Assembly (NCBI GenBank): GCA_965655315.1
Contig: CBFHGJ010000004.1
Location: forward strand, 4,382-68,381
Direction of reading: 5' to 3'
Source of the DNA: Bacteroidia bacterium
GTDB taxonomy: Bacteria; Bacteroidota; Bacteroidia; NS11-12g; UBA9320
DNA length: 64,000 nt
The notes beneath the pieces were generated by a model. It ran no database searches. It was not told the DNA's origin and saw nothing but the letters and a program-made list of their open reading frames with translations. The translations under genes and the position numbers were made by a program. Of this stretch, positions 4,472 through 47,447 are shown one piece after another. Every line of letters begins with the position of its first letter. Positions within the stretch are counted from its first letter, which is position 1.

Positions 4472-4780
4472 ATGGATGAGACAGAGTATGTCAAACAGTT
4501 TAAGAAGAAATATCATACGTATTCTGTAAGCAATATACTTAGAGAAGCAGCAATAATGATCCCAGTATTAGTGTTTTCAGTAGGAGTTACTTCTGGTTTT
4601 AGCTGGAAATTGATAGTCTTTGCAATACTGAGTAGTCTTTTGTTCGGGATTTTTCAGATAACACTTCAACGCTACCTATACAAAAGAGGATACAGTAAGA
4701 TACCTCCACAGTCTAAATACTCTAATAAATCCTATAAACAGATACAAGAGGAGAAAGCCTCTAAATCCAAAGATGTTTAG
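4472..4780 (+). CDS. small membrane protein (2 TM), hypothetical
   Basis: 102 aa with two hydrophobic segments and a lysine-rich tail. Confidence 0.35.
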   Translation: MDETEYVKQFKKKYHTYSVSNILREAAIMIPVLVFSVGVTSGFSWKLIVFAILSSLLFGIFQITLQRYLYKRGYSKIPPQSKYSNKSYKQIQEEKASKSKDV

Positions 4781-5381
4781 AACAATTCTGCTCCACTACT
4801 TGAAATGATTGTCCATCATATTCCACCACATAAAGACACAAGTTGTTGTGCTTAAATTCATCCATTTGTTGAAGTGGCGTTTTGGTAAGTAAACATAGGA
4901 AGCTTCGCATAGCTCTGCCGTGCATAGCGATTAAGACAGTTCTTTCACTTTCCTTTTGTAGTAGTTTGTTGAGTCCTATACTCTGTCGTTTTTGCATTGC
5001 GTTTGGTGTCTCACCACCCTCCACAGCCCTATCTAGTAGTCCAGCTTTCCAGTCTCGGATCATTGCTTGATATTCTTTAAAACTATCAGGTGTTCCTTTT
5101 AGTCCTTCAAACTTGCCCCAGTTAATCTCATTAAACTCTGGCATAACCTCCATTGCTACACCTTGTTTGATGAATTTTTCGACACTCTGCTGTGTCCGTT
5201 TTAACTCGCTTGTATAAATTTTATCAAAAGAAATATGGTGATAGGCTTTGTAAAACTGCTCAGCTTGTTTTCTACCTGTTTCATTTAGGCTACTATCTAT
5301 TCCGCTACCTTGAATTACCCCCTGTTTGTTATAATCGGTTTGCCCATGTCTAATGATATAAATCGTTTTCTTTGCGGTCAC
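4761..5381 (-). CDS. histidine phosphatase family protein (phosphoglycerate mutase-like)
   Basis: 206 aa. RHG motif at the N-terminus (YIIRHGQTDYN), and a conserved His later (AMHGRAMR). Confidence 0.8.
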   Translation of the reverse strand: MTAKKTIYIIRHGQTDYNKQGVIQGSGIDSSLNETGRKQAEQFYKAYHHISFDKIYTSELKRTQQSVEKFIKQGVAMEVMPEFNEINWGKFEGLKGTPDSFKEYQAMIRDWKAGLLDRAVEGGETPNAMQKRQSIGLNKLLQKESERTVLIAMHGRAMRSFLCLLTKTPLQQMDEFKHNNLCLYVVEYDGQSFQVVEQNCSKHLWI

Positions 5382-8001: not shown

Positions 8002-8025
8002 GTGTTAAAATCAGTAAACAAAAAA

Positions 8026-8055
8026 AGGGTGCAATCAAATAATTGATTGCACCCT
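8026..8055. terminator. bidirectional intrinsic terminator between convergent genes
   Basis: Perfect 13-bp stem AGGGTGCAATCAA / TTGATTGCACCCT with loop ATAA. A7 on one side gives a U-tract for the minus-strand giant gene; TTTAAT on the other side serves the plus-strand gene. Confidence 0.78.
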
Positions 8056-8076
8056 TTAATATTTAACAAGGCCGTG

Positions 8077-11000
8077 TTATGGTTGTCTTATTAACTCTAC
8101 CTGTCCTTCTATAGGACCCTGACCTTCATTTTCTTCTCCAAACTCAAACTTGTAGTTGATAATGTAGAAGTAGGTTCCTTCTGGGCAGTCCGATTTAGTA
8201 TTATCTACTTTACCATTCCAAGAAGTATTTATATCATCTGATTCAAATACTTTTTCGCCCCATCTGTTATATATCTTAATATTATATTCTTCAAGACCCT
8301 CTCCGTCTATAACAAACTCATTGTTTCTTATATCACCTTCAGGAGTAAATACATTATATACAACTAGTCTTCTTACATAAGAGTTATTAACTAATTGACA
8401 TACAGTATCCATACATCCTATTGAGCTTTGAGCTATTAAACATACTTCATAAGTACCAGTTCTATTATCCCAATTATAGCACGGATTTACTTCGTTGCTA
8501 CTTCCTGGAAGTGGGTCATCTTCAAATGACCATTCATATTTAGTAGAATCAGCATCTACCGATTCATTTATAAAGCAGAAGTTTGGTCGGTCGGAAGAAT
8601 CTATCGAGAACTTAGCTTCAACACCTGCAACTCTTACGAATACACTATCTCGTCCCCAACATCTCGGTAAGATATCATATTCAGGAGCTTGTGCTACCCA
8701 ATAGTTACCAGGACTACTAAAGCTTCTTGACCAAGTTCTATCCGTTGTTGTAGCTCGATTTAATGAATCTCCTTCGCTAGACAACCACACTAATCTGGTG
8801 TAACGCTCATCTAAGCTATCGATAGTAAAGTTAATTACTTCATTTGGACAGACAAGTGTGTCATCCGCTGAAATATGTACTTCTGGTAGCGGTTTGACGA
8901 TAGCAACCATTCTACGTTGCACCAATTGGGACTCACTACTATCTGGGAACACCCTTGTACAACTATTGCCATCTGGCATAACATCCTGCATAGCTAACCA
9001 TAGAATGAATGTGTCTGCTCTTTGGTAAACGTGACCATACTTCTCTGAACCAGCTGGTGGATCTGAGAAATTACCATCACCCCAGTTCATTAATAAACTT
9101 GGGTTGTTACCGTCACTCGTACTTAAGTTTTTCAAGAAAACTGAATCTCCTAAACAAATTTCAATAGTATCTGTCAAACCACCCAAATCAAATTCAAATT
9201 CTGGTCTAGGTCCAGGTATATAGATACGCTTGGTGATAGAGTCTTCACAACCCAGCTCTGACCACACCTTTAATGTTACATCAAAACTACCTCCAGAGGT
9301 ATAGTTATGAGATGGATTCTGCAGTAAACTCTTACGAGTACCATCCCCGAAATCCCATTCCCATCGTATTACTTTTTCACAACTAAGAATAGTTCCATCA
9401 GCACACGTATCTCTACACGGATCATCTACCCAGCTACTATCTGTAAAGTTTACAATAGACTCACAGCTAATTACAGAATCACCTAAAAAGTCAGGATGTA
9501 ACCTTGAAATGTACGCAGTGAGTACAGAGGTATCTCTACAACCAATACTATCCTTAGCTATAATAGTAATGTCGTACTTTCCAGGATTTTTATATCTGTG
9601 ATTTAGTACAATCGAACCTACAGAGCTATCTCCATCACCCCAAAAGGCTTTGTGGAACTCTATCAAATTCGCAACTCTATCAGGAGTTTGCCAGAAAGGA
9701 ATTTCCTTAATAGGATAAGTGAACGGATCTTCCTCTCCATACTGATAATACCTAAGTGAATCCTCTACAAGAAGAGAAGCACCCTCACACAGGTTCTCGT
9801 TTTCTAACCAATATTCATTATAAAAACCTACGTTCAATAGATTACCTGATCTAGCTTCACATCCATCTGTATTATTTAAGAACAGAGTAGGAATCATAGG
9901 TCCGTTGCCTGCACGGAATATAGTATCCTTAGCTCCTGGGAAACACGGATCTGGAGTAACTTCTTCCGGGAAAACATACTGTTTTCTCCATACACCTGCA
10001 ATGGTATCTAACTGTCCATTACCAGATGTATCTTGAAGGAGTGTATCGTAACCTTGTAAAGAAGAATCCCTAAAGTGTAAAATTTGAGAAACTTCATAAG
10101 AATTAACACAATCATCTCTATTGTAATTGTTAGTAGAATCAATAACATTTACTTGTACATTTTCCTGTCGAGTCTGAATACTAGTTATGGAATCTTGGGT
10201 CGGGTCTACCTGAGATTTAACTCTGTTACCTGCCATATCTGTGAAAAAGGTAGTATCTGGAACTGTGATAGATTCTGCAGTTACAGTAGTATCATACAAG
10301 AACATTGGAGAATAAACTCTACACCTCATTCTTCTATCACCTTCTACCCATACATCAGGGTCCACTTTCTCAGAGTAAGCCTTCTTGCCAAACCTAAAGA
10401 ACTGACTCAAACCAGTTGTATCAAGACAACCACTTGTTCCATCACCAAGGTAAAGTGGGATATCTTCAGGTGGCAATTCAGAATAATTTAACCCTAATAA
10501 TTGCTCAAATGCATCCTTTACAGCTCCATCAGCGTTTCTAGTGTCAGCTACGATTCTATAATCTTTTATAATCGTTGTTACTATCGTATCAATTATTTCT
10601 AAGCCTCCAAAATCTGTTATAGTTTGTCTAATAACATAGTTATACAACCAATCATCAGAAGGACTCCAGATTACATTTGCATCATTTCTGCCTGCTACAG
10701 GTCCATTGTATTTCTCATAATACTTGAATTGCTCAACATAAATATCTAGTGTAGGTCCTCTTCCAATACCTTGGTAACCCCAAGCCCATCTCAACACAGA
10801 TATACTGTCTTGAATTGGCTCATTTATTCGGAATACAGCTTCACCACCAGCACAAATCACTTTTCTAGGTGTAGTAGGCTCTAATATGGTAAATCCTGAA
10901 TTTAAATATAAAATTCTGAATAAATCATTATACCAAAATGTATCAAGACATTCCGGTAGCATTCCTCCTCCTTGTTGAGGTACCATTCTACCATTACCTA

Positions 11001-14000
11001 CTATCAGGCCTAACGTAAATGAACCGTTCGGATTTCTCAAAGTTGGATCATTACCTATCTCCCCTGGAGTATAGCCTTTCACAAACTCTCCACCTAAGTT
11101 CCCCCTAATATCGTAAGGTAAAACAAATGGGATAGGAAGTCCTGGAGGAGGAGGAGCAAGAAGTCCACCATTATATGGAATGAAGTTATTTGGATCCGCT
11201 AAAGAATCAAGATTAGCTGCAAACCAGCGTTGTGTACAACCAGGTTTAGTTTCCGTTATGTTAAAGGTTAATATATAATTTAAGTTACTCCCGTCAAACG
11301 GACAAGGCAATCCAGAAGCCCACTCTAATCCATTTGCATTTGGTGGAATAAGTGCTAGAGATTTTGTCCCTTCAGACTCGCACATTAGAGGATGAATAGT
11401 ATCCTGTTGCCAAAGTGTTACGTTAAAGCATTGAGCATTTTCTAAGAACCATTCTTCCCTATGCTTAGCCGAATCCACAATTATCTGAGAAATCTCAGTC
11501 TCAACCAAAATACCAAACTGTTCTCTAAGCACTGGAATTCTAGAAGGCGTTGCAAACGTAGTATCAGACTCATTTTCTTCGATCTTTATAAGAACCTTAA
11601 TAGAATCATTACTTGATATTTCAAACTGTTCGTTTGCGTCAAGCGTAACTGTTTGTGGTCCTGTGAAGCTTCGAGTTCTTCCTACATTAGCTCCACCGCC
11701 ACCAGGAGCAGCTAACTGAAGTGTATTTATCGTTACACCAGCTGGAATGAACACATCCATCTCGTGGAATGCAGCCGTCCAAGTAGTTTTAGCATTGCCC
11801 GCAGTAATATTATTCCTACCTAACCAATCCTCAGTATGATATGTAGTATCTGTAAGATTATTAACTGCTACAAATGTGTCTAGAGCAGGATCCCAGTATA
11901 ATTCGGTTCCAATGAAACAAGATGGTGGCCTTTTAACTATCCAATTCCCAAGTCGATTCTGAGGGTAAATTACTCCTGGTTTGATTGTATCCCCTCGATA
12001 AATCAAAGTAGAATCCAAAGGAACAGTAAGTACTGTATCTCCCTGAACTATCATAGGATTTGAAGGGAATATATTTACTTGATAACATCTAGATCTGTCA
12101 CCATTTTTGAATAGTCTTGTTTCTCTAATTGGTGTAGTATAATTTCTACCATCTTGGAATGTTTGATATATCTCATCCCAAGGGGTATACCAGTGAACCG
12201 GAGTACTATCAATTGTCCAATTACAATTGATTCCTACATTCTTATTTACCCAAGGCCTACTGTCTGTGGTACACTGCGGAGCATATTGGTCTCCCATTTC
12301 CCATACACGCCACACGTTGGGGTTGTAGTTTCTGATAATTGGAGTCAATGGATCTACCGCAGTTTGATCTCCAATACCTACACCGCCTTTACCCACTGGA
12401 GGAGTGTAGTTAAACACCCATCTTCTTCGTGGATTCACTCCAAATCTATAACTCTTCCCACCTTTAGCAGGATCATACACTAGTCTATGCCAGGTAGTAT
12501 CCCCCAAACGGATAGCCGCAATGGAATCTTTTGCAGTATCAAAATAAACCTTGTAAGCTTTCTTTTTTATAGTATCCGTGGGAGCATAAGTACTATCTAA
12601 AGTCTTAGTGTTCCCTCGATTCAATTCTTCATATTCTCGGTAATGCAAGGAATAGAAACCACTGGTATAGTCATACTGATAATCAAAGGTGCAGTCATAG
12701 TAATACACTGCTGAATCTTCATCAAACCTGTTCCAATCATTTTGATAATAACTAGAGTTGTTAGGGAAATGAATAGAATCTCTAATCAAACACTGATACG
12801 TTTCATCTTCTGCAACACGGTCAAATGCCACTTCTATAGTAGAACCAGGTCCTATAAGCTGAACAGTATCGTATATAGTAATATCACAAGGCCCAGCAAA
12901 TAATCTTAGACTAATCATCCACGGTCCTGGACCGTAAGCTTTATTAGGAGTTAAAGTCTTGTCATTAAAATTAGCAGGACCTGCTGGTGGATCACCAAAA
13001 TTCCATAAAAATCTATCCACGGGAGTACCGTCCAGATTCTCAACCGAAAACTCTATCGGATTATCAGGTGTACAAGCAGGGTCAGGATCTGCCACTATTC
13101 TAGGGTCAAGAATAATATTACCTACAGCAGATTTCCATGTGAATACGTCTACACAACCATATGCTTCTACAATAAGACTACCATCAAATAAGCCTTGTGT
13201 TCTATACATATGTGAAACTTTATTGTCATTGTCTGGACCAAACCACCATTCAGTATTTGTAGTTCGGTTACCTCCTACAGATTCTCCATCTCCCCAATCC
13301 CAATAAAAACTATCGATATCAGCTAACGGGACTGTACTTGTATTTTCAAAAATACCTAAGGTAGAATCACAACCAGGATTAGGTCTAGGTGTAATATTGT
13401 TGAACTCGGCTCCTATCTTAGGATGAACATAGATGATGTCTTTATACTCAACACGTGCAATACAACCACTTTCATCTTCCACTTCAACTACTAAATCAAA
13501 AGAACCACCCGACGGATCTAAAATAGTGTGACAAATAGTATTGTCTAACTTTTTCCGAACTTGTCCATCATTGAAAATGGTATCATATCTCTGACCATCA
13601 CTGAATAAGTAAGTCACACGAATGATATTTCCTTCCGGTGCAGAAGATGTATCCCTAAAACAAAATCTATTGTCTTTAAAACACTGTGTGTCTCTGTCAA
13701 TCACAAATGCGTCTACATCTGGAGAAGGTTTAATTACTACACTTAGGTCTGTATTAGTACACTGACCTGCGGGTCCATCTCCTTTAAACGTAATAGTAAA
13801 TGTTCCTGAAGTCTGGTATGCATAGGTAGGATTCTGTTGAACAGAATTTCCGACACCATCACCAAAATCCCACTGCGGAGCTGTGGTATAACCAGGTGAA
13901 TTTGCTCTGAAACTAATAATCTCACCTACGCAAAAAGTATCCATAACCCCTTGTTGACCGTCTTTCATGGTCAACTGCGGTGAACACTGTGAATAAGCAA

Positions 14001-14154
14001 AACTACTCACAAAAATGAGCAGCGTAGATAGAACATACTTGTACAGTATATTCTGGATTGATGGTTTGTTCATATCTATATTCATTTGATAGTTGTCTTT
14101 TGTATTTAGCCTATAAAAGCTTGTAAATTTACTTGTGTTATCTCTATTATTCAA
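8077..14154 (-). CDS. giant (2025 aa) PKD-domain-rich surface protein with C-terminal T9SS type-B sorting domain (gliding motility-associated C-terminal domain)
   Basis: C-terminus …YNVFTPEGDIRNNEFVIDG…IYNRWGEKVFESDDINTSWNGK…GTYFYIINYKF… matches the type-B CTD. Repeated PKD-like WDFGDG…/WNFGD… motifs. The signal peptide lies at residues 38-55 of the track ORF, so the true start is probably ATG at about 14085 or 14073. Confidence 0.85.
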   Translation of the reverse strand: MNNRDNTSKFTSFYRLNTKDNYQMNIDMNKPSIQNILYKYVLSTLLIFVSSFAYSQCSPQLTMKDGQQGVMDTFCVGEIISFRANSPGYTTAPQWDFGDGVGNSVQQNPTYAYQTSGTFTITFKGDGPAGQCTNTDLSVVIKPSPDVDAFVIDRDTQCFKDNRFCFRDTSSAPEGNIIRVTYLFSDGQRYDTIFNDGQVRKKLDNTICHTILDPSGGSFDLVVEVEDESGCIARVEYKDIIYVHPKIGAEFNNITPRPNPGCDSTLGIFENTSTVPLADIDSFYWDWGDGESVGGNRTTNTEWWFGPDNDNKVSHMYRTQGLFDGSLIVEAYGCVDVFTWKSAVGNIILDPRIVADPDPACTPDNPIEFSVENLDGTPVDRFLWNFGDPPAGPANFNDKTLTPNKAYGPGPWMISLRLFAGPCDITIYDTVQLIGPGSTIEVAFDRVAEDETYQCLIRDSIHFPNNSSYYQNDWNRFDEDSAVYYYDCTFDYQYDYTSGFYSLHYREYEELNRGNTKTLDSTYAPTDTIKKKAYKVYFDTAKDSIAAIRLGDTTWHRLVYDPAKGGKSYRFGVNPRRRWVFNYTPPVGKGGVGIGDQTAVDPLTPIIRNYNPNVWRVWEMGDQYAPQCTTDSRPWVNKNVGINCNWTIDSTPVHWYTPWDEIYQTFQDGRNYTTPIRETRLFKNGDRSRCYQVNIFPSNPMIVQGDTVLTVPLDSTLIYRGDTIKPGVIYPQNRLGNWIVKRPPSCFIGTELYWDPALDTFVAVNNLTDTTYHTEDWLGRNNITAGNAKTTWTAAFHEMDVFIPAGVTINTLQLAAPGGGGANVGRTRSFTGPQTVTLDANEQFEISSNDSIKVLIKIEENESDTTFATPSRIPVLREQFGILVETEISQIIVDSAKHREEWFLENAQCFNVTLWQQDTIHPLMCESEGTKSLALIPPNANGLEWASGLPCPFDGSNLNYILTFNITETKPGCTQRWFAANLDSLADPNNFIPYNGGLLAPPPPGLPIPFVLPYDIRGNLGGEFVKGYTPGEIGNDPTLRNPNGSFTLGLIVGNGRMVPQQGGGMLPECLDTFWYNDLFRILYLNSGFTILEPTTPRKVICAGGEAVFRINEPIQDSISVLRWAWGYQGIGRGPTLDIYVEQFKYYEKYNGPVAGRNDANVIWSPSDDWLYNYVIRQTITDFGGLEIIDTIVTTIIKDYRIVADTRNADGAVKDAFEQLLGLNYSELPPEDIPLYLGDGTSGCLDTTGLSQFFRFGKKAYSEKVDPDVWVEGDRRMRCRVYSPMFLYDTTVTAESITVPDTTFFTDMAGNRVKSQVDPTQDSITSIQTRQENVQVNVIDSTNNYNRDDCVNSYEVSQILHFRDSSLQGYDTLLQDTSGNGQLDTIAGVWRKQYVFPEEVTPDPCFPGAKDTIFRAGNGPMIPTLFLNNTDGCEARSGNLLNVGFYNEYWLENENLCEGASLLVEDSLRYYQYGEEDPFTYPIKEIPFWQTPDRVANLIEFHKAFWGDGDSSVGSIVLNHRYKNPGKYDITIIAKDSIGCRDTSVLTAYISRLHPDFLGDSVISCESIVNFTDSSWVDDPCRDTCADGTILSCEKVIRWEWDFGDGTRKSLLQNPSHNYTSGGSFDVTLKVWSELGCEDSITKRIYIPGPRPEFEFDLGGLTDTIEICLGDSVFLKNLSTSDGNNPSLLMNWGDGNFSDPPAGSEKYGHVYQRADTFILWLAMQDVMPDGNSCTRVFPDSSESQLVQRRMVAIVKPLPEVHISADDTLVCPNEVINFTIDSLDERYTRLVWLSSEGDSLNRATTTDRTWSRSFSSPGNYWVAQAPEYDILPRCWGRDSVFVRVAGVEAKFSIDSSDRPNFCFINESVDADSTKYEWSFEDDPLPGSSNEVNPCYNWDNRTGTYEVCLIAQSSIGCMDTVCQLVNNSYVRRLVVYNVFTPEGDIRNNEFVIDGEGLEEYNIKIYNRWGEKVFESDDINTSWNGKVDNTKSDCPEGTYFYIINYKFEFGEENEGQGPIEGQVELIRQP

Positions 14155-14156
14155 AT

Positions 14157-15413
14157 CTAAGGTCGTATTAAAGTTAGTCTTACATTTTCGGTCTTACTAT
14201 TTTCTCCTTTGAGCTGATATTTTATACGTGCAATATACTCTCCTGGAAGACACTCTTCTCCCACGTTAAATTCTCTTCCATTCCACTTATTATCAGGATT
14301 TTGCGAAGTGAAAATCATTCTACTGTTTCTGTCAAAAATCTGAACAGTGAAGTTATCGTAGTCTCTAATTTCAATAGGATATTCATCATTATGACCATCC
14401 CCATTTGGAGTGAATGTATTGTATGTTTTTAAGTATCCAGTTGATTTTTTGGTCAGTGATACACTTACATTTTCAGCACAAGACAATCCCGTTGGTATTC
14501 CAACTAAATTGTATTGACCTACCATGTCTAACGTTACAGTCAAACTGCTCGAATTATTTTTGATTGACGCTCCGTTCAGAATCCAGTCAACCAATACGCC
14601 ACTAGGCTGTGTTTGGAAGCTATAATTATCCTTACCCTTTTGTGTTTTCGTTATTGTGAATGAATTATCCAATACTTGAATAGATTCCTCTGCACTAGCA
14701 AGTCCTGCTTGAAGGCTAACGAGCACTTCACCCGCCTCGTTGCACAGATAAGTTAACTCACTTGAATTACTAACTACTCTCTCTCCGTTAATGTACCAAT
14801 CCCCTGCAAAACTGCTGCTTAAAGTTACCGTTTCACCTTTACAAGGAGTGTTTTTCGATACCCTAATAGTTAATTCTTTCCTTTCTAAAATGTTAGACGC
14901 TTCATCTAATGTTTTAGATTTTTCGTAACCTATAGACTTATCAAGTACATCTGACGGGCTATCCTCAATTTTATCCTTGATTCCAGTTGTCTGGCCATTG
15001 TTTTCTAGAGTTTTTGGACGCTCAACAGAGCTATTTGTAGGAGTTGCACCTTTAGAGTCAGCGTTTTCAGAATTTTCATTAACAAGAATCTCTGTTTCTT
15101 CATAACCTTCGGTGTTTTCAGCTATTAGAGAATCAACTACCAAAACTTCAGGAGAATTTGGCACCTGATCTTGGGTCTTGTTTTCGTTGTAAACAACAAT
15201 ACCTATAGCTGCTATACCACCTGCAAAAAGGCCTACTTTCAGCAGATTCGTAGCAGATTTGAAAAAACTAACTGTTTGAGCTAATCCGCTAGCTCCTTGA
15301 GTTGTAGATGCAGATACATCAGTCCACACGTCTGAAGGAGGCGAAGATGTATGACCATCTAGTTGCTTTTTTAGCAGCTGCTCAAACTCATTTATATCCT
15401 CAAACTTCTTCAT
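14157..15413 (-). CDS. single-pass membrane protein, anti-sigma-factor-like N-terminus, Ig-like extracytoplasmic region and C-terminal T9SS type-B sorting domain
   Basis: 418 aa with about 55 aa of hydrophilic N-terminus, one TM (VGLFAGGIAAIGIVVY), and an acidic S/T/N-rich linker. C-terminus …YNTFTPNGDGHNDEYPIEIRDYD…IFDRNSRMIFTS…NKWNGREFN… matches the type-B CTD. ATG directly follows the TAA of the upstream sigma gene (TAAATG). Confidence 0.6.
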   Translation of the reverse strand: MKKFEDINEFEQLLKKQLDGHTSSPPSDVWTDVSASTTQGASGLAQTVSFFKSATNLLKVGLFAGGIAAIGIVVYNENKTQDQVPNSPEVLVVDSLIAENTEGYEETEILVNENSENADSKGATPTNSSVERPKTLENNGQTTGIKDKIEDSPSDVLDKSIGYEKSKTLDEASNILERKELTIRVSKNTPCKGETVTLSSSFAGDWYINGERVVSNSSELTYLCNEAGEVLVSLQAGLASAEESIQVLDNSFTITKTQKGKDNYSFQTQPSGVLVDWILNGASIKNNSSSLTVTLDMVGQYNLVGIPTGLSCAENVSVSLTKKSTGYLKTYNTFTPNGDGHNDEYPIEIRDYDNFTVQIFDRNSRMIFTSQNPDNKWNGREFNVGEECLPGEYIARIKYQLKGENSKTENVRLTLIRP

Positions 15414-15959
15414 TTATTTAAACCAATCTTTTAGCCAGACTTGAAGCTGTTTACGAGCTTTAAACAGTTGTGATTTAGATGTATTCTCATTCACACCTAA
15501 AGCTTCACTTATCTCTTTGTGAGAGTAACCATCGACGACAAACATGTTAAACACGGTTCTATATCCCGCTGGCAGCTTTTGCACTAGCATCATCATTTTT
15601 TCGGCGTCCATACTCCCTACATTTATGTTCGTTGTGAGTTTAACATCCGTTGAATTCAATTCGCTTACATCAAGATGCTTTTTTCGTTTTCGGAACTGCT
15701 CGATACTGGTATTTACGAATATTCGTTTTAGCCATCCTTCGAAGCTTCCAGAAAACGAGTAGCTACCTATCTTATTGAACACTTTTATAAAGCCTTCCTG
15801 CAGAGCATCTTTGGCTTCATCTTCATTGTTCATATATCTCAAGCATATGCTGTACATCGTGGCAGAGTGTCTATCGTATATCTTCTTAAACGCTTTGTTA
15901 TCTCCTTTTCCACAAGCCTTAATTAATGATGTTTCATCATATGTTTCGCTATGGCTCAT
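15414..15959 (-). CDS. RNA polymerase sigma-70 factor, ECF subfamily
   Basis: 181 aa. Region 2 (…YDRHSATMYSICLRYMNNEDEAKDALQEGFIKVF…) and region 4 HTH (…SHKEISEALGVNENTSKSQLFKARKQL…). Confidence 0.85.
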   Translation of the reverse strand: MSHSETYDETSLIKACGKGDNKAFKKIYDRHSATMYSICLRYMNNEDEAKDALQEGFIKVFNKIGSYSFSGSFEGWLKRIFVNTSIEQFRKRKKHLDVSELNSTDVKLTTNINVGSMDAEKMMMLVQKLPAGYRTVFNMFVVDGYSHKEISEALGVNENTSKSQLFKARKQLQVWLKDWFK

Positions 15960-16009
15960 GGTGGAGTTGGTATAAAGATGGACTCAAGACTGAGATGGTT
16001 GCCTATAAA

Positions 16010-16477
16010 TTATATTTTTTTTACGTGGTATTTCTCTGCCAGATATTCTTTTAAATTTTCAGCATAATAACCAACGGCTTCTAGTGGTTCCACTATCTCT
16101 ACTTCATTCAGGCCATGGGTCACCCTTTTATACTGTATACTAACCACTCTTTGCTCAGAATTTGCAATAAATCGTGCTCCAAATAAATGAAAATTCAAGT
16201 GAGCTAGTTCTTCCATGAACATTGCCAAATACTCATCTGCAGGGTAATGGCAAACTGGCGATACAACCTGAAATATTGCAGCTACATTATCTCTATCAAA
16301 ATACTGCCATTGACTAGCAACGTCCGGCTGCCATATATCAATATATAGCTCAGTTGAATCCCCTCTTTTGATAATATACTCGCCTTCGTTTTCACATCTG
16401 ATCTGCTCTGGCTTCAATTGCAAGTGCTTATTAACCGTCTCCTGGAAAACCTTGATTGCTTCCTTGATTTGCATCAC
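16010..16477 (-). CDS. hypothetical cytoplasmic protein (possibly YbjN-like)
   Basis: 155 aa with no signal peptide. The family assignment is a weak guess from size and composition. Confidence 0.35.
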   Translation of the reverse strand: MMQIKEAIKVFQETVNKHLQLKPEQIRCENEGEYIIKRGDSTELYIDIWQPDVASQWQYFDRDNVAAIFQVVSPVCHYPADEYLAMFMEELAHLNFHLFGARFIANSEQRVVSIQYKRVTHGLNEVEIVEPLEAVGYYAENLKEYLAEKYHVKKI

Positions 16478-21469: not shown

Positions 21470-23998
21470 TTAAAACAGCGGAGTAACTGTCCCTTTTCTA
21501 GTCCTTGCTTGCCCATCACATCCTCTATAGTATGCGTAATAGATATAAGCAGCCTGAGTAGCTCGCTTGCCTTTATAAAAACCATCCCAGTTGGGAGTAT
21601 CTGAAGTTCTGGAGTCAAAGACTTTTTCTCCCCATCTATTAAAAATAAGTATATAGTATTCAGTCTGTTTAACAGACTCACTGAATGGGAACATATCATT
21701 CAGTTGATCATCGTTTGGAGTAAAGCTATTCGGGATATAAATATCATTGGGCAACGCTCCTTCGTCAACTATGACCTCGAGTGTATCAATATCGAAACAT
21801 CCTGAATCGTCCGTAATTTTCACTGAATAAGATCCACCATCTCTAATAGAAATTTGTTGTTCATTACTTCCTACATTCCACTCGTAAGCAAATCCTGCTG
21901 GAGCTGACAATAGCGTAGGACTGTTCTTACAAATAGTGGTATCATTTCCTAGTGAAAGTCTTGGAGACTGAGACAATGTCAATGTTACAGAATCCACAGC
22001 TACACAACCATTTGTATCTCTCACCTCTACTTTATAAAATCCAGGTTGATTTACTTGAATAGTTTTAGATACGTCATTTGTGTTCCAGTTATAAAATGCT
22101 CTATCAGTTCCTGCATCTAGTACAACATTTAATGAATCACAGTAATTGCGGTCTTCCCCTAAATCTAAACTAACTACTGGATTTAGAATATTAAATGTAT
22201 CTCGTTTTCTACAATGCTTTTGCTGTGATTCCACCCAATATTGCCCAAATATGCTGATTTGGCTAGTAAGTCCTTGATCACCATTTGACCAAGAATAAGT
22301 TGCGTCAGGGAATTGTTCTACGGTAGCTGTATGAATGAACTCATTGCAGTACAATGCATCTGGCACCTCGGGTTGATCTGCTACCCTTACTGTCATATCT
22401 TTAGACAAAGCACAATTGCCATTGGCTGCGGTCACAGAATATGTTCCCGGCTCAGTAATTGTCACTGTAGTAAATGTATCTTGTGGACTCGTCGTCCACG
22501 CAAACTTGATCTCAGGACGTTTATTTGGCATTTGTAACTCAGCCTCGAGTAAAACCTCATCACAGAAGAGCGTATCTTCAATGAGTGAAAAGTCAGGTAT
22601 TGCATCTAGTCCAATATTGATTTCATCTGTATACGAGCACTCACCATAGGATACGGTAACAGAATATGTTCCCGTATCTCTTACGGTAATGGAATATCGA
22701 GTAGAACCTGTATTCCATAATATATCTGGAGCATCCGGATCTCTAGTATATAGATCTAGCACAAAATCATTACAGTATACTTTGTCTTCACCAAGATCAA
22801 ACGGAGGAGAAGACCTAATACGTACTTGATATTCATACTCATCTTCGCATTCATCAGATTTTACAGTAAGAGTAATAGTATAGTCCCCATTCCCTGGATA
22901 GGCATACTCCACGGGATCATTGATATCATAAGTTATTAACTTATCATCTTCTGTATCTGGAACCCCAAAGTCCCAATGAAACTCTGCGGATATACTAGGC
23001 TCTACAAAACTTAGATTCGTGAGCTTTACAGTATCTTCACATCCAAAAGAATAAATTCCATTTTCTACATCTCCTCCGTTTAGCCTATAATTTGCTAGAA
23101 TATTAAAATCACATTGAATTACGCTTATTTGGTAATCTCTTCTAGTAACTCCTAAAAGTAGACCATCTCTCCATTCTTCTACCAGCAATCCAATGACGTA
23201 GACTCCTCTTTCAGTTGGTGTCATAGTCAATCTTCCGGTTCGTGCATCAAGATTTAGTGCTGGTTCACCTGGAATAGGATTCTTAGAATCATACCCGTTG
23301 GCCCAAAATACACTTTGAAAATCAGGTCTATCATACCATTGTTGTGAACTTGGTCTGATCCGTTCATCAGGTGCTCGTGCTCCACCTCTGTACGGCGTAG
23401 ACATTTTGTAAGCTAGAGAGTCTCCATCAAAATCAAACGCCTCTTGCGTAATATCTAAAGGAGCATCCACGCAGATATAAATCGGAGGTATATCAGTGAA
23501 TAATGGACTGCTGTTTTCTATTCGACTAGGGGGAATGGTTGTCCAAGCAGTAAATCCAGTAGCTTCAGGAGTCACGATATTATCAATTATCCTATTTCTG
23601 CAACACCGTTGCCACGCTAAAATTACACCATTTTCACCTGGATCTATTTGTACTTCTGCACTGTACAGATATGCCGTTACACAAACATTTCTTGGACCAT
23701 TTATGCATGCATAATCCTCACTCTTGGTTACCTGAGTTTGATTGAATGTACTGACAGTAAAGTCTCTTTGAAACTGTTTTGTCTTAGCATCCCACTGGGA
23801 AATGTACAACGTCTGATCTGAGGCGATTGCTTGAGGATTCCCATTTTCACAATCAAAAAATATCTGAGCAGTAACTCTATAGGTATTCGTTTCTCGGTCT
23901 AGTAACCTGTACATCAATTCACCTCCAACTATATGTGTAGCAAAGCCTAAGGTGGCTTGAACTAGTAAAATTGATATGAATATTAACCGATAAATCAC
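21470..23998 (-). CDS. T9SS type-B C-terminal-domain cargo protein (gliding motility-associated C-terminal domain protein)
   Basis: 842 aa with a signal peptide. C-terminus …IYIPNSFTPNDDQLNDMFPF…ILIFNRWGEKVFDS…NWDGFYKGK… matches the type-B CTD. Confidence 0.85.
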   Translation of the reverse strand: MIYRLIFISILLVQATLGFATHIVGGELMYRLLDRETNTYRVTAQIFFDCENGNPQAIASDQTLYISQWDAKTKQFQRDFTVSTFNQTQVTKSEDYACINGPRNVCVTAYLYSAEVQIDPGENGVILAWQRCCRNRIIDNIVTPEATGFTAWTTIPPSRIENSSPLFTDIPPIYICVDAPLDITQEAFDFDGDSLAYKMSTPYRGGARAPDERIRPSSQQWYDRPDFQSVFWANGYDSKNPIPGEPALNLDARTGRLTMTPTERGVYVIGLLVEEWRDGLLLGVTRRDYQISVIQCDFNILANYRLNGGDVENGIYSFGCEDTVKLTNLSFVEPSISAEFHWDFGVPDTEDDKLITYDINDPVEYAYPGNGDYTITLTVKSDECEDEYEYQVRIRSSPPFDLGEDKVYCNDFVLDLYTRDPDAPDILWNTGSTRYSITVRDTGTYSVTVSYGECSYTDEINIGLDAIPDFSLIEDTLFCDEVLLEAELQMPNKRPEIKFAWTTSPQDTFTTVTITEPGTYSVTAANGNCALSKDMTVRVADQPEVPDALYCNEFIHTATVEQFPDATYSWSNGDQGLTSQISIFGQYWVESQQKHCRKRDTFNILNPVVSLDLGEDRNYCDSLNVVLDAGTDRAFYNWNTNDVSKTIQVNQPGFYKVEVRDTNGCVAVDSVTLTLSQSPRLSLGNDTTICKNSPTLLSAPAGFAYEWNVGSNEQQISIRDGGSYSVKITDDSGCFDIDTLEVIVDEGALPNDIYIPNSFTPNDDQLNDMFPFSESVKQTEYYILIFNRWGEKVFDSRTSDTPNWDGFYKGKRATQAAYIYYAYYRGCDGQARTRKGTVTPLF

Positions 23999-28961: not shown

Positions 28962-29726
28962 TTAGTGTGAAACAGTAACTTTAGTAGTACTTACCTCTTC
29001 TCCGTTTGTTAACTTCAAGATGTAGATCCCATTTTCAACATCTGAAACGTTGAGCTGGATAGCACCTTGACCTAGCAAATCAGAAACTAAAGCTGACTCA
29101 ACAACTTTACCTGTAAGATCTACAAGTTCAACTTTGGTGTTGTCTAAGTTAGCATAAAGTATTTCTACGTTCAATATATCCTTTGCTGGATTAGGATATG
29201 CAGCAATTTTTCCATTGTAAGAAACTTCATTTACAGAAACCCCATTTTGATATTGGTTGTACCAAATTCCAGTAGTTGCCGATACATTATTGCTTGAATC
29301 ACTATCAACTTGAGGATTACTACGATCAAAATGATAAGCAGTAATACCTATTATTATATCAAATGAATTTCGTGCTATCAATGTAGTGTTAAGTGGTGTT
29401 TCAATTGTATATGTCCCCCCTGCGGCCATTTCTTCGGTCAATAGCGTTAGAGCAAGATTACCGGCAGCAGCGTTTTGAGGATACTGAGTTATTAGATTTT
29501 GACCTGGTTGACCATTTGGATCTAATATTAGCATAGAATATGCTATAGTATCCCCTGCACTTATAGCCCCAGTACCATTATTTTCTAAAACAATTTCCAA
29601 TGGAATTTGAGTTCCGCTAGCGGTTGATTCAAGGTTTGTTGGAGATACTGATCTTATTCCTACTTCAACCTGAGCATAGGTTAAACCAGTAATAGCCAAT
29701 AAAAATAGAGTAAGTGTTTTTTTCAT
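28962..29726 (-). CDS. small secreted protein with T9SS type-A (Por secretion system) C-terminal sorting domain
   Basis: 254 aa with a signal peptide. C-terminal about 80 aa …AAYPNPAKDILNVEI…VELVDLTGKVV…GIYILKLTNGEEVSTTKVTV matches the type-A CTD. Confidence 0.75.
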   Translation of the reverse strand: MKKTLTLFLLAITGLTYAQVEVGIRSVSPTNLESTASGTQIPLEIVLENNGTGAISAGDTIAYSMLILDPNGQPGQNLITQYPQNAAAGNLALTLLTEEMAAGGTYTIETPLNTTLIARNSFDIIIGITAYHFDRSNPQVDSDSSNNVSATTGIWYNQYQNGVSVNEVSYNGKIAAYPNPAKDILNVEILYANLDNTKVELVDLTGKVVESALVSDLLGQGAIQLNVSDVENGIYILKLTNGEEVSTTKVTVSH

Positions 29727-38782: not shown

Positions 38783-39643
38783 CTAGGCAGATATTACATC
38801 TACCTTACTTTTTCTCAGTTTTGTGAAGATAAATGCTAGGGCAAAGAGTATTCCGATGACTGCTGAGATAGCTCCTGCCACTGAAACATCCATTGCTTTA
38901 GCAAAATAATAGCCTATAAAGGAACAAACTATCCCAATAGCTGCGGACAAGAATAGCATCTTTTTAAAATCCTCAGTAAGCAAATAAGCGATAGCAGGAG
39001 GACCTGATAAAAATGCAATCACTAGTATGGCACCAACAGATTCGAAGCTAACAACAGTAGTAAGCGACACTCCACCCATCAAAAAGTAATGCCAAAAACT
39101 AACGGCGACTCCGGTAGACAAAGCAAAATTTGGATCAAAAGTGGTAATAAATAAACCCTTATATCCCCAAGCTACTGCCGAAACTAATACCACACAAACT
39201 ACCAATAAAATAACTGCTTGTCTAGGTAATGAAAAACCACCAATAATTGGTTGTAGCCATAAAGATACGTACTCAATCTCTCCATAAAGAACACATTGCT
39301 GATCTAAATCAGCATTTGCACCATATTTTGATATGAGGATAATACCTAGAGCAAATAATAGGGTATACGAAATTCCAATAGAAGCATCGCTCTGCAATTT
39401 TGCCTTTTTGGTAAACCACTCTATCATCAGTGTTGCTAAAATTCCACTTCCTGCAGCTCCGATGAGCATAGGGAAACTAGCTGTGGAACCTGAAAAATAA
39501 TAAGCAATGAAGATTCCCGGCAGGACAGCATGAGAAATAGCATCCCCAATCATAACCATTCTACGCATAACAAGGAAACTTCCCATTAAAGAGCAATTAA
39601 TCGCTACCAAGCAAGCTGTGAATATGACATAGAAATCGTTCAT
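38783..39643 (-). CDS. metal (Mn/Zn/Fe) ABC transporter permease, TroD/ZnuB family
   Basis: 286 aa, 8-9 TM, ABC-3 family pattern. Confidence 0.85.
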   Translation of the reverse strand: MNDFYVIFTACLVAINCSLMGSFLVMRRMVMIGDAISHAVLPGIFIAYYFSGSTASFPMLIGAAGSGILATLMIEWFTKKAKLQSDASIGISYTLLFALGIILISKYGANADLDQQCVLYGEIEYVSLWLQPIIGGFSLPRQAVILLVVCVVLVSAVAWGYKGLFITTFDPNFALSTGVAVSFWHYFLMGGVSLTTVVSFESVGAILVIAFLSGPPAIAYLLTEDFKKMLFLSAAIGIVCSFIGYYFAKAMDVSVAGAISAVIGILFALAFIFTKLRKSKVDVISA

Positions 39644-40929
39644 TAGTATGGTATTTTACTTTTGTGAGGATCTACTTCTGGCCTATCTAGTAACTTTATT
39701 AGCTCCTTCTCTATTTCAGGAGTGATGATATGTTCGATACCTTCAGCATCGTCGTGTATATGGTCTGCGTCTAGCTGGAAAAATTTGGTTAGATAGATCT
39801 CCCATAGTCTGTGCTTCCTAATTACCTCTTGAGCTGCTAACTTTCCCTTTTCATTTAGTATTATAAATCCTCTTACCAGATCAATCAAGTCTTTTTTCTC
39901 CAATCTATTGAGTACAGTCCGAACCTTAACTGGAGAGTACTTTTCTTTTTCAATTAACTCAGCTAAAGGCAATGAATTCTGTCCTTCGTTGCCCAGTTTA
40001 TATATATCTTTTAGAACATTCTCATTATTAATTTTTATATGATTTGACTGACGAATTCTCATCCTTGCAAAAACTCCTTTCCTTTTTCCAAATAGAATTC
40101 CAACAAGTGCAAAAACAGAAAGTACCACAACGATCCACGGTCCAGTGGGCATTCCATTGCCAGTATAACTAATTACAACACCCGTAATACCGCTTAAGAA
40201 ACCAAAACTGCCGGCATAAATCAACATGAGCTGTATAGAATTTGTAAGAAATCTAGCCCCGGCAGCCGGTGTAATAAGAAGTGCAGCCATGAGTACCACC
40301 CCTACAGCTTGAACTCCAATTGCTACCGTAACCACGGTCAATATGGCAAGGAGCGATTTTATAAGTGATACGTTAAGCCCTATGCTTTTGGCATAATGCT
40401 CATCAAAACTGATAGTACTAAATCCTCGCAGGAATATGCTTACACAGATAACATTGAGTATTGCTATAGCTGAAAATACTTGTATATCCAGCATTCCCAT
40501 AGATGCTGCCTTACCAAAAAGAAAACTATCCAAACCACTTTGAGCCGCATTCCCACTATGCTGTATCTTGGTAAGTAAAACTATCCCAATACCAAAGAAA
40601 ACGCTTAACGTAAGAGCTAAAATAGTGTCTGGTTTTAGCTTTGAGTTAGACTGAACATAGTCCACGACCCAAATAGAAATAAGTCCAGATATTATAGCTC
40701 CAGTAAGAAAGTAGAATGGATTTTTGACACCAGATAACATAAAAGCTATTGCCACACCTGGAAGAACAGAATGAGATATCACATCACCAATAAGAGCTCG
40801 TTTCCTCAAATAGGTAAAAGTTCCTACAACTCCAGCAGCTAGACATAATACACCAGAACCAATACTGACTACAAAAAGAGTAAAATTCTCAGCCGAAAAG
40901 AAGGTAGTTATATGTTCCCAAAAACTCAT
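39643..40929 (-). CDS. metal ABC transporter permease (TroC/ZnuB-like) fused to a C-terminal DtxR/TroR/MntR-type metal-dependent repressor domain
   Basis: 428 aa. Residues 1 to about 290 form an ABC-3 permease. Residues from about 300 carry a winged-HTH plus the DtxR metal-binding/dimerisation region (…RKHRLWEIYLTKFFQLDADHIHDDAEGIEHIITPEIEKELIKLL…PHKSKIP), colinear with DtxR (HRLAERFL…EEACRLEH…PHG). Confidence 0.78.
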   Translation of the reverse strand: MSFWEHITTFFSAENFTLFVVSIGSGVLCLAAGVVGTFTYLRKRALIGDVISHSVLPGVAIAFMLSGVKNPFYFLTGAIISGLISIWVVDYVQSNSKLKPDTILALTLSVFFGIGIVLLTKIQHSGNAAQSGLDSFLFGKAASMGMLDIQVFSAIAILNVICVSIFLRGFSTISFDEHYAKSIGLNVSLIKSLLAILTVVTVAIGVQAVGVVLMAALLITPAAGARFLTNSIQLMLIYAGSFGFLSGITGVVISYTGNGMPTGPWIVVVLSVFALVGILFGKRKGVFARMRIRQSNHIKINNENVLKDIYKLGNEGQNSLPLAELIEKEKYSPVKVRTVLNRLEKKDLIDLVRGFIILNEKGKLAAQEVIRKHRLWEIYLTKFFQLDADHIHDDAEGIEHIITPEIEKELIKLLDRPEVDPHKSKIPY

Positions 40930-47380: not shown

Positions 47381-47408
47381 TCAGCTTGGCGTAAAATAAA
47401 ATTAATTA

Positions 47409-47445
47409 AGGAGATGGAATAGTTTATTTCATCTCCTTTTTTTTA
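47409..47445 (+). terminator. intrinsic terminator immediately downstream of proteorhodopsin and 3 nt upstream of blh
   Basis: Stem AGGAGATG / CATCTCCT with a 13-nt loop followed by T7. Confidence 0.65.
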
Positions 47446-47447
47446 TT

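Follow-up and report, generated by a model that had tools for sequence, protein, structure and literature searches.

The window considered here, the whole 64-kb stretch of DNA that was analysed, carries on its reverse strand an ECF sigma factor gene, a partner gene encoding a candidate anti-sigma, and a gene for a giant T9SS type-B cargo (Table 1). At the junction of the first two genes (TAAATG) the TAA stop of the sigma gene abuts the ATG of the partner. The sigma factor matches the Pfam models Sigma70_r2 (E=3.2e-14) and Sigma70_r4_2 (E=5.2e-17) and scores 85 bits against TIGR02937 (cut-off 42.9); no curated subfamily model in the Pfam and NCBIfam scan scored above its own cut-off. Its close homologs form more than 120 clusters at 54-98% identity. 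The sole database annotation of the partner is 'gliding motility-associated C-terminal domain-containing protein'. A sequence-only reading had described this ORF as an N-terminus followed by a TM helix, a linker, Ig-like repeats and a T9SS CTD, and both the ORF and its layout were borne out: a conserved N-terminus of about 56 aa, the helix, an acidic linker, two Ig-like domains and a type-B CTD follow one another.

Table 1. Features of the sigma-partner-giant unit, with positions numbered along the window
Feature	Position	Strand	Remarks
Putative autoregulatory ECF-type promoter, GGCAAC-N17-CATCT	15976..16003	(-)	~45 nt upstream of sigma ATG
ECF sigma factor gene	15414..15959	(-)	181 aa
Partner gene (candidate anti-sigma)	14157..15413	(-)	418 aa, ATG start
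N-terminal module, candidate sigma-binding domain, residues 1-56	15246..15413	(-)	Conservation
Single TM helix, residues 57-75	15189..15245	(-)	Mean Kyte-Doolittle 2.05 over 19 residues
Acidic low-complexity disordered linker, about residues 76-180	14874..15188	(-)	Presumed periplasm-spanning tether
Two Ig-like/PKD-like beta-sandwich domains, about residues 181-325	14439..14873	(-)	
T9SS type-B CTD, about residues 326-418 and stop codon	14157..14438	(-)	Specialised subclass
Conserved non-coding element, TTTGA-N20-TAAATTTAC	14123..14155	(-)	Directly 3' of partner stop
Giant T9SS type-B cargo gene	8077..14085	(-)	About 2,000 aa; PKD domains, CHU_C, ordinary signal peptide
Intrinsic-terminator-like hairpin	8024..8057	(-)	15-bp stem and T-run; ends sigma-partner-giant unit

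The transcription unit and its recurrence

The giant cargo is matched by PKD_4 (E=6.5e-42) and CHU_C (E=1.3e-18), and its translation probably begins with the ATG of position 14085 or 14073, yielding MNKPSIQNILYKYVLSTLLIFVSSFAYSQ. Its gene is likely to be the last in the operon; in related loci metH comes next after the giant gene. Among the ORFs scanned in the window there were no genes for an SprF/PorP-like carrier, for the T9SS core or for a site-2 protease.

The putative promoter before the sigma gene is the sole match to GGCAAC-N17-CATCT in the window. Its two boxes are present in all 26 family loci that contain the region, at a fixed position and nowhere else, separated by a spacer that varies in sequence. 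Loci of the wider class have related GCAAC-N16-17-C(A/G)TC boxes upstream of sigma, and the cargo gene of L039 and of L049 has, past a terminator, a second ECF-like box in front of it. The non-coding element that follows the partner gene also occurs only once in the window; an exact regular expression located it at the same place in 22 of 28 family loci, and the remaining ones have near-variants. We take it to resemble the Bacteroidota housekeeping promoter consensus, with its -33 (TTTG) and -7 (TAnnTTTG) elements. From the start of sigma to the start of the giant gene there are no terminator-like sites, and the first terminator lies past the giant gene. The layout allows read-through from the ECF-type promoter. 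On the other hand, a housekeeping-like element directly before the giant gene means that cargo expression may not depend on the ECF sigma. The initial idea that sigma drives transcription of the giant cargo is therefore compatible with the gene order, but as a claim for sigma acting alone it is weakened by this promoter-like element.

The arrangement is not peculiar to this locus. The sigma gene lies directly upstream of the partner in 29 of 29 family loci, with a gap of -4 to +4 nt, and wherever a family contig extends far enough an ORF of 1,948-2,083 aa lies directly 3' of the partner. The same sigma-partner-cargo module, with a gap of -20 to +3 nt, was found in at least nine further loci of other Bacteroidota lineages (L007, L035, L039, L044, L049, L051, L081, L111 and L112), which span Flavobacteriales, Crocinitomicaceae, Bacteroidales and unclassified Bacteroidia. 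Sigma stop and partner start abut or overlap in 38 loci, and the repetition of this junction rules out a chance co-location with sigma. The anti-sigma-like position first read from the window alone is upheld by the tight coupling in the family and in the nine further loci.

As a background we used 80 unrelated CHU_C loci from a genome-contig scan with full-length alignment, a scan that was dominated by the generic FTPNGDGxN pattern and in which orthologs of the partner were not found. Nine ECF sigma genes occur in these loci, seven of them paired with a protein of the partner type and two with classical RskA anti-sigmas. A survey of 74 complete CHU_C proteins gave 69 without an upstream sigma gene, of which a single one has a late hydrophobic segment, probably owing to an over-extended ORF start.

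Architecture and topology of the partner

The N-terminal module consists of an amphipathic helix (residues 7-19), a P26/V29/W30 motif and a juxtamembrane helix. In nine full-length homologs of 33-92% identity the residues M1, K3, F4, I7, E11, L14, K15, H21, P26, V29 and W30 are invariant, and a hydrophobic stripe is formed by positions 4, 7, 10, 13/14 and 18. AlphaFold2 places helices at residues 7-19, 27-37 and 43-63 with low confidence (pLDDT 40-59). Searching 1.84e9 proteins with a profile of the module yielded just 44 representatives, almost all of which share the architecture of the partner. Judged by its conservation, the module is translated and under selection. Residues 1-80 have no Pfam or NCBIfam match even at E<=1. 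A comparison with known anti-sigma domains (zf-HC2, RskA, ChrR) had been proposed along with the regulatory role, and it revealed no similarity: a profile search against the PDB found nothing (best E=0.89), and hhalign against RskA-type anti-sigma N-termini gave a probability of 0.2%. With about 40 conserved residues the module is too short for the four-helix class I anti-sigma domain, which has ~80-90 aa. A broader N-terminal profile, run in a large protein search, returned only four short proteins, all fragments of the partner class, and extended neither to Dma-type nor to other architectures.

Conservation continues into the TM region, where N56, K59, G65, G66, G71, E77 and N78 are invariant among close homologs. 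The charges flanking the helix in family members, +0.34 on the N side and -2.03 on the C side, fit an N-in orientation. By heuristic tests the small-x-small cleavage motif is absent after the helix (VVY/NEN), and the partner has no cleavable N-terminal Sec signal peptide, the hydrophobic segment coming late, after the 56 conserved residues. These observations agree with the sequence-only reading, which took the segment to be a signal-anchor and not a signal peptide, and the ordinary signal peptide of the giant gene in the same operon lends this further support. The partner is accordingly predicted to be a single-pass membrane protein with a cytoplasmic N-terminus. We rejected a mis-called start, by which a signal peptide would have been mistaken for a TM helix: the sole alternative in-frame start in codons 1-75 is a GTG at codon 29, which still lies 28 residues before the helix, and the upstream residues are themselves invariant across homologs.

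Beyond the membrane the protein changes in character. The linker has 21 D/E against 9 K/R in 94 residues, and in the AlphaFold2 model residues 61-177 are disordered (pLDDT 25-33), while residues 178-418 form three beta-sandwich domains (pLDDT >90). The Ig-like region gives weak Pfam matches to PKD_3 and BiPBP_C, and a Foldseek search of the PDB with the full model returned generic tandem Ig-like folds only, the top match being GhpA of Aureispira. Across 36 family members mean pairwise identity reaches 0.50 in residues 1-40, 0.52 in the TM helix and 0.48 in the CTD, as against 0.25 in the Ig-like region and 0.13 in the linker. In distant members (P0054, P0060, L035, L044 and L051) the protein is made up of N-terminus, TM helix, linker and CTD alone, and in relatives without Ig domains the distance from TM helix to CTD is 142-160 residues.

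A distinct subclass of type-B CTD

The C-terminal domain of the partner scores above both curated thresholds for type-B sorting domains, with 59.4 bits for Pfam CHU_C (PF13585; residues 329-407, E=3.8e-16, cut-off 27) and 40.8 bits for NCBIfam TIGR04131 (cut-off 35), and it keeps FTPNGDGxND, W377, G379, G391, Y393, L415 and R417. It had been called an unmistakable type-B CTD, and as far as family assignment goes this holds; it is nevertheless an atypical one, in which the R-W-G motif of cargo is absent. In a comparison of 25 anchored-class with 80 cargo CTDs, R-W-G was found in none of the former and in ~90% of ordinary cargo; taken singly, the W has a frequency of 0.00 against 0.88 in cargo and the R one of 0.16 against 0.95. 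The Gly of the last strand is kept in 0.32 of the anchored class and 0.99 of cargo. Neighbour-joining analysis groups 21 CTDs of the anchored class in one clade with no cargo CTD inside it. The CTD of the partner belongs to a distinct subclass.

The secretion of SprB needs all five conserved type-B CTD motifs (SprB CTD study), and it is our inferred mapping that relates the positions compared here to the published motifs A-E. The loss of R-W-G suggests that a CTD of the anchored class may not be a normally transported substrate, and from its residues the partner CTD may not engage the translocon as cargo does.

Comparison with known systems and possible mechanisms

The closest parallel is found in the Dma family. 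The N-terminal 40 residues of Dma1 from Bacteroides suffice to bind the sigma factor Das1; the protein crosses the inner membrane with a single TM helix, continues through the periplasm as a long disordered tether and has an outer-membrane module, so that it spans both membranes, and it is proteolytically processed (PMC10927553). This published layout makes a membrane-anchored topology of the partner plausible. By the published description the two share a restriction to Bacteroidota, a gene adjoining that of an ECF sigma, a very short cytoplasmic N-terminus followed by a single TM helix, a long periplasmic tether that is disordered, and a C-terminal module bound for the outer membrane, and for both a regulation by proteolysis is proposed. 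However, Dma ends in an 8-stranded OMP_b-brl_2 beta-barrel and the partner in two Ig-like domains and a type-B CTD. Neither the Pfam scan nor the AlphaFold2 model revealed an outer-membrane barrel in the partner, so that any link to the outer membrane would go via the T9SS or its carriers and not via BAM. The regulons differ as well, that of Dma comprising NigD or OMV genes, whereas that of the partner appears to include a giant T9SS adhesin.

With type-B cargo, as represented by SprB-SprF and Fjoh_3952-Fjoh_3951 (PMC12618676, PMC9143113, PMC12635249), the partner shares matches to TIGR04131 and PF13585 above the cut-offs, the FTPNGDGxND, W-x-G, G-x-Y and L-x-R positions and, as in many such proteins, Ig/PKD-like domains before the CTD. 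It differs in having, in place of a Sec signal peptide, a conserved cytoplasmic module and then an internal signal-anchor, in lacking an adjacent carrier gene, R-W-G and the last-strand Gly, and in being coupled to a sigma gene. [quoted passage not shown] An adjacent SprF/PorP-like carrier gene is common for type-B substrates but not universal, and 'orphan' substrates exist.

There are also precedents for regulation by a secretion machine. In FlgM/sigma-28 and in ExsE of the Pseudomonas T3SS the inhibitor of a transcription factor carries a secretion signal, and the state of the machine can thereby set how strongly late or large substrates are expressed. Both FlgM and ExsE are soluble proteins that are exported in full, whereas the partner is anchored in the inner membrane and unrelated in sequence, and the likeness is one of analogy only. 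In FecA-FecR-FecI an outer-membrane signal passes to a single-pass inner-membrane anti-sigma and on to an ECF sigma by proteolysis. Sensing and relay there fall to separate proteins, energised by TonB, while the partner would do both, with the T9SS as counterpart. In Porphyromonas gingivalis a CTD-bearing T9SS protein relays T9SS status to an ECF sigma by way of PorA-PorXY-SigP (PMC7712824, PMC12152298). PorA, however, is secreted as normal type-A cargo and signals via a two-component system, and it is neither an anti-sigma nor membrane-anchored nor in direct contact with sigma.

On balance we lean towards the view that the partner is the cognate anti-sigma of the upstream ECF sigma, of a trans-envelope, Dma-like design and coupled to the T9SS. 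The architecture, the gene coupling, the footprinted promoter and the distinct CTD subclass come directly from the analysis; the binding of sigma, the contact with the T9SS and a proteolytic or signal-dependent release of sigma are parts of the proposal that we infer. The amphipathic-helix module (about residues 1-40 or 1-56) would hold sigma at the inner membrane, the conserved TM helix would anchor the partner N-in, and the disordered acidic tether of ~100 residues would span the periplasm together with the two Ig-like domains. The specialised type-B CTD could in this way contact the outer-membrane machinery of the T9SS, that is the SprA translocon and/or an SprF/PorP-like carrier, and the state of this contact, whether engaged, pulled on or vacant, would lead to the release of sigma, most likely through cleavage of the tether and then intramembrane proteolysis. 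The freed sigma would activate its own GGCAAC-N17-CATCT promoter, and read-through from there would raise the expression of the downstream giant type-B adhesin. The analysis suggests that this class of candidate anti-sigma is a recurrent and undescribed route by which, in Bacteroidota, the secretion and gliding machinery is coupled to the transcription of a giant surface protein.

A more far-reaching form of the proposal is that the T9SS is itself the signal. Type-B substrates remain on dedicated carriers and are ejected from the translocon by mechanical force (PMC12635249, PMC12618676). The tethered CTD might be caught by SprA or by an SprF-like carrier on the moving GldK track, and ejection or the force of the track would pull on the tether, expose or tear the anti-sigma for proteolysis and free sigma. 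The module would then be an FlgM-like 'secretion-competence checkpoint' or a mechanosensor of the load on adhesin or track, widespread in Flavobacteriales and Bacteroidales, which licenses giant type-B adhesins only while the machinery runs. We think it unlikely that the system goes this far.

The partner may be an anti-sigma and still have nothing to do with the translocon, its CTD-like domain serving purely as a periplasmic sensor or decoy that binds a free SprF-like carrier, the Energy Chain or accumulated unsecreted cargo, with occupancy setting the stability of the anti-sigma. The sensing of OMP C-termini by RseA/DegS is an analogue. Such an arrangement would explain why CTDs of the anchored class form their own clade, are without R-W-G (the W in 0 of 25) and have mostly lost the last-strand Gly, when SprB requires every conserved type-B motif for secretion, and it agrees with an inner-membrane tether that rules out full export. 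Yet the CTD keeps most of the functional type-B signature positions and exceeds the curated thresholds, the tether and Ig domains are long enough to reach the outer membrane, and the Ig-less relatives have longer linkers, as though the protein must bridge a set distance, which a sensor would not need to do. We hold this to be rather unlikely. The partner could also be a pro-protein, with the N-terminal module and TM helix as its regulatory anchor. The tether would be cleaved constitutively or on a signal unconnected with the T9SS, and the Ig-CTD fragment would be an ordinary T9SS substrate that assists or anchors the giant adhesin at the surface; the T9SS would be the route of disposal or deployment and not the signal. 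Dma1 does yield stable C-terminal fragments that reach OMVs, the Ig and CTD part of the partner is well folded and conserved, and in all cases the partner is encoded together with a giant type-B cargo. This becomes improbable when it is considered that the CTD subclass is without motifs needed for cargo secretion, that Ig-less members would set free a bare CTD with no obvious accessory function, and that the poorly conserved linker has no conserved cleavage motif.

The partner might finally not be a regulator at all, but an ordinary T9SS cargo or accessory with a long or atypical signal sequence that happens to share the operon of sigma. Its N-terminus resembles no known anti-sigma domain, and its database annotation refers only to the C-terminal domain. 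We consider this very improbable, given that few parts of the protein are as well conserved as the 56 residues ahead of the hydrophobic segment and that these residues have a motif found also in distant sigma-coupled relatives, that the sigma and partner codons abut or overlap throughout the 38 loci, that only the one case in 69 of a late hydrophobic segment is seen in CHU_C proteins without an upstream sigma gene, and that the giant protein encoded in this operon starts with a normal signal peptide.

To our knowledge, the matching of giant adhesin expression to T9SS or gliding capacity is known in Bacteroidota only for PorXY-SigP of P. gingivalis. If the preferred reading of the partner as a T9SS-coupled anti-sigma is true, one polypeptide would be a direct and testable wire between a T9SS sorting domain and an ECF sigma. 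The principle of a single anti-sigma that spans the envelope was reported only recently, for Dma, and would be extended to a second route of outer-membrane targeting; the partner would also be an exception to the stated rule of a Sec signal peptide on all T9SS CTD proteins. The unannotated N-terminal module and the CTD subclass without R-W-G could be used to annotate many proteins now described by their 'gliding motility-associated C-terminal domain', and the module would be a natural system in which the recognition of a CTD by the T9SS is set apart from its transport. Between the CTD of the partner and that of the giant cargo, identity averages 33% in cognate and in non-cognate pairs alike.

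Architecture and conservation of the partner protein

The partner, a candidate anti-sigma factor, is the product of a real open reading frame of 418 aa, whose ATG abuts the TAA of the ECF sigma gene (junction TAAATG); the 181-aa sigma has Sigma70_r2 and r4_2 domains. The C-terminus of the partner matches Pfam CHU_C at 59.4 bits (curated cut-off 27) and the NCBIfam model TIGR04131 'T9SS type B sorting domain' at 40.8 bits (curated cut-off 35). Residues 57-75 form a single hydrophobic 19-mer (mean Kyte-Doolittle 2.05), and C-terminal to it lies an acidic stretch with 21 D/E and 9 K/R. An AlphaFold2 model built from a 10-sequence alignment gave three beta-sandwich domains at residues 178-418 (pLDDT >90), disorder at 61-177 and helices of low confidence at 7-19, 27-37 and 43-63, and Foldseek searches with this model returned generic tandem Ig-like folds only. 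Every element described in the sequence-only reading, from the N-terminus and TM helix through the acidic linker and Ig-like part to the type-B CTD, is therefore present.

Nine full-length homologs (33-92% identity) share the invariant residues M1, K3, F4, I7, E11, L14, K15, H21, P26, V29 and W30, and most of the TM helix is also invariant in them (N56, L58, K59, L62, F63, G65, G66, G71, E77, N78). Over 36 full-length members the mean pairwise identity is 0.50 for residues 1-40, 0.52 for the TM helix, 0.48 for the CTD, 0.25 for the Ig domains and 0.13 for the linker. The distant homologs P0054 and P0060 have lost the Ig domains and retain the N-terminal module, TM helix, linker and CTD. A search of 1.84 billion representative proteins with a residue 1-83 profile gave only 44 matches, nearly all of them 400-422 aa long and laid out as the partner is. 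The N-terminal module has a conserved hydrophobic stripe (positions 4, 7, 10, 13/14 and 18, then P26, V29, W30 and V33), a pattern that would be expected of an amphipathic helix binding another protein.

The TM helix has flanking charges of +0.34 N-terminally and -2.03 C-terminally and is not followed by a small-x-small site. The sole alternative start codon is codon 29, and the giant type-B cargo, encoded downstream in the operon, starts with an ordinary signal peptide (MNKPSIQNILYKYVLSTLLIFVSSFAYSQ). For these reasons the segment is predicted to be an N-in signal-anchor. The N-terminus is best described as a genuine module under selection, neither an artefact nor, by this prediction, a signal peptide. 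Conservation of the TM helix matches that of the functional domains. Its invariant residues G65, G66 and G71, small or helix-destabilising and flanked by N56, K59, E77 and N78, form a pattern compatible with site-2 protease recognition or helix-helix packing. In the sub-lineage of comparison loci L081 and L112 the partner carries the N-terminal motif twice in tandem (ELIDLLRDRLGDLEAPVDPALWQGI, TELFRNGLQNAEVPIDPGVWTNI) ahead of the TM helix.

Coordinates of features in the window and in comparison loci
Locus	Position	Strand	Feature
Window	8057..8024		hairpin and T-run
Window	14155..14123	-	TTTGA-N20-TAAATTTAC element
Window	14157..15413	-	partner gene
Window	about 14250..14252	-	C388 codon
Window	15189..15245	-	TM helix
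Window	15414..15959	-	ECF sigma gene
Window	16003..15976		ECF-like promoter footprint
Window	16010..16477	-	155-aa protein
Window	21470..23998	-	second type-B CTD protein
Window	28962..29726	-	type-A CTD protein
Window	39643..40929	-	ABC-3/Fe_dep_repr_C protein
Window	46598..48344	+	rhodopsin gene, then blh
L039	~4815..4900		hairpin and ECF-like box
L049	~4510..4600		hairpin and ECF-like box
L081	4226..5281		partner with tandem N-terminal motifs
L112	6001..7060		frameshifted partner with tandem N-terminal motifs

A recurrent three-gene module and its putative promoters

The sigma, the partner and a giant type-B cargo form a three-gene module that recurs across Bacteroidota. In 29/29 module-bearing loci (the window, L001, L003 and L085-L110) the partner is immediately preceded, on the same strand, by an ECF sigma ORF, the two being -4 to +4 nt apart. 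The giant in the window is an ORF of about 2,000 aa with four PKD domains and CHU_C, and an ORF of 1,948-2,083 aa follows the partner in every family locus with sufficient contig. As background we took 80 generic CHU_C loci from a genome scan, ranked by query similarity. Five of their 74 complete CHU_C proteins have an ECF sigma directly upstream. In all five, a similar N-terminal motif (D-x-L-F-R...P-x-x-x-W-x-x-I) is followed by a TM helix placed internally, at about residues 45-105, then by a long linker and the CHU_C domain. A late hydrophobic segment occurred in one of the 69 proteins without an upstream sigma, where the ORF is probably over-extended. With two more sigma-coupled cases, L039 and L049, which have two PKD domains, an anchored type-B CTD protein is paired with 7/9 ECF sigmas in these loci, and the other two have classical RskA anti-sigmas as partners. 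Because the loci were ranked by query similarity, 7/80 should be read as enriched and not as a prevalence. The layout extends to L111, which has a sigma, a partner of the distant, independent P0010 family and a 2,114-aa PKD/CHU_C giant, and to L112, where the module is present with a frameshifted partner split into 115-aa and 235-aa ORFs. Most wider-class loci, from Flavobacteriales, Crocinitomicaceae, Bacteroidales and unclassified Bacteroidia, have a large type-B cargo gene downstream (1,817, 2,034, 990 and 711 aa).

ECF promoters have -35/-10 elements of the GGAAC...CGTC type. About 45 nt upstream of the sigma ATG stands G(G/A)CAAC-N17-CATCT, its single match in the window; it recurs, with varying spacers, at that place only in 26/26 family loci covering the region, and related boxes precede sigma genes in the wider class. 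We regard it as a phylogenetic footprint of putative promoter function, and its ECF promoter shape makes autoregulation of the sigma likely. No terminator-like site was found from the sigma to the giant gene in the window, and a 15-bp hairpin with a T-run follows the latter. In L039 and L049 a terminator hairpin after the partner is followed by a second ECF-like box ahead of the cargo gene (GCGAAC-N17-CGTCA and GGCAAC-N16-17-CGGTC, respectively), an arrangement suggestive of direct control of the cargo by the sigma in these lineages. Directly after the partner stop, once per locus, is a strongly conserved non-coding element, TTTGA-N20-TAAATTTAC, kept even at only ~31% partner protein identity. 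The Bacteroidota housekeeping promoter consensus is -33 TTTG / -7 TAnnTTTG, and the element resembles it, which makes it a candidate promoter of this kind; if functional, it would allow sigma-independent transcription of the giant gene as well.

Between a 926-aa Sortilin/BNR gene and the ECF promoter lies a gene for a 155-aa protein of no family, with a weak Pfam TY-Chap1 match (T3SS/YbjN-like chaperone; E=0.039). Synteny of this gene extends to L001-L004. Its stop codon precedes the -35 box by just 6 nt, so the gene could be part of the module or lie outside it.

A divergent sorting domain and a possible link to secretion

We aligned 25 anchored-class CTDs, from sigma-coupled CHU_C proteins with an internal TM helix, with 80 ordinary cargo CTDs. 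Both share FTPNGDGxND, W377 (frequency 1.00 in each), G379, G391, Y393, L415 and R417. The R, W and G of the R-W-G motif occur at 0.95, 0.88 and 0.96 in cargo and at 0.16, 0.00 and 0.40 in the anchored class, the last-strand Gly at 0.99 and 0.32, and Cys at query position 388 at 0.12 and 0.76. A neighbour-joining tree, from a short alignment and without support values, placed 21/25 anchored CTDs in a cargo-free clade. By these sequence criteria the anchored CTDs constitute a distinct subclass. Since secretion of the SprB CTD requires each conserved type-B motif (PMC12618676), the subclass may attach to T9SS parts yet not be transported as normal substrates are. C388 (VGEECLPGEY) is the only extracytoplasmic Cys in members without Ig domains; an intermolecular disulfide is conceivable for it, since bonds of this kind (SprF-GldK and PorG-GldK) were recently described in the T9SS/gliding machinery.

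Among known systems the Dma family comes closest. The Dma1 gene adjoins that of the ECF21 sigma Das1, which is bound by the N-terminal 40 residues of Dma1; one TM helix, a long disordered tether and an 8-stranded outer-membrane barrel follow, and the protein, called unprecedented and Bacteroidota-restricted by its authors, undergoes proteolytic processing (PMC10927553). Set beside this published description the partner has a similar plan, but with Ig-like domains and a type-B CTD in place of the barrel. No anti-sigma factor with a T9SS CTD was found in the literature searched on T9SS or type IX secretion combined with anti-sigma or ECF. Our interpretation is that the partner would be a Dma-like trans-envelope anti-sigma using a specialised T9SS type-B CTD.

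Other explanations would make the partner a non-regulatory protein, a purely periplasmic sensor or decoy, or a cleaved pro-protein whose C-terminal fragment serves as a surface accessory. The sequence-only reading had called for comparison of the N-terminus with known anti-sigma domains, and searches by Pfam, NCBIfam, PDB profile and hhalign found no similarity to class-I domains. Its regulatory interpretation is partly supported. That the partner is the cognate anti-sigma of the upstream sigma seems probable from the gene coupling and the conserved module; interaction of its CTD with T9SS components has about an even chance, and control of proteolytic sigma release by that interaction is a tentative step. 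Type-B substrates stay attached to dedicated SprF-like carriers, mechanical force ejects the complexes from the SprA translocon, and on a moving track SprF and GldK are joined by a disulfide (PMC12635249, PMC12618676), so a tethered CTD would meet force or changes in occupancy. Genes for a carrier, a T9SS core component or a site-2 protease were not found within the window.

Other genes of the window

Another type-B CTD protein, of 842 aa with PKD and CHU_C, is encoded beside DUF5777 and YceI genes, and a small 254-aa protein has a type-A CTD (Por_Secre_tail); with both CTD classes present, a T9SS in the host is implied. The host is an uncultured marine Bacteroidia with proteorhodopsin: a bacteriorhodopsin-like gene of proteorhodopsin type (Bac_rhodopsin E=8e-42) is followed by beta-carotene 15,15'-dioxygenase (blh), which points to light harvesting. 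A ZnuA-ABC operon includes an ABC-3 (Znu/Mnt-type) permease with a C-terminal Fe_dep_repr_C, the metal-binding/dimerisation domain of iron-dependent repressors (E=1e-23), an unusual fusion of permease and regulator domain.
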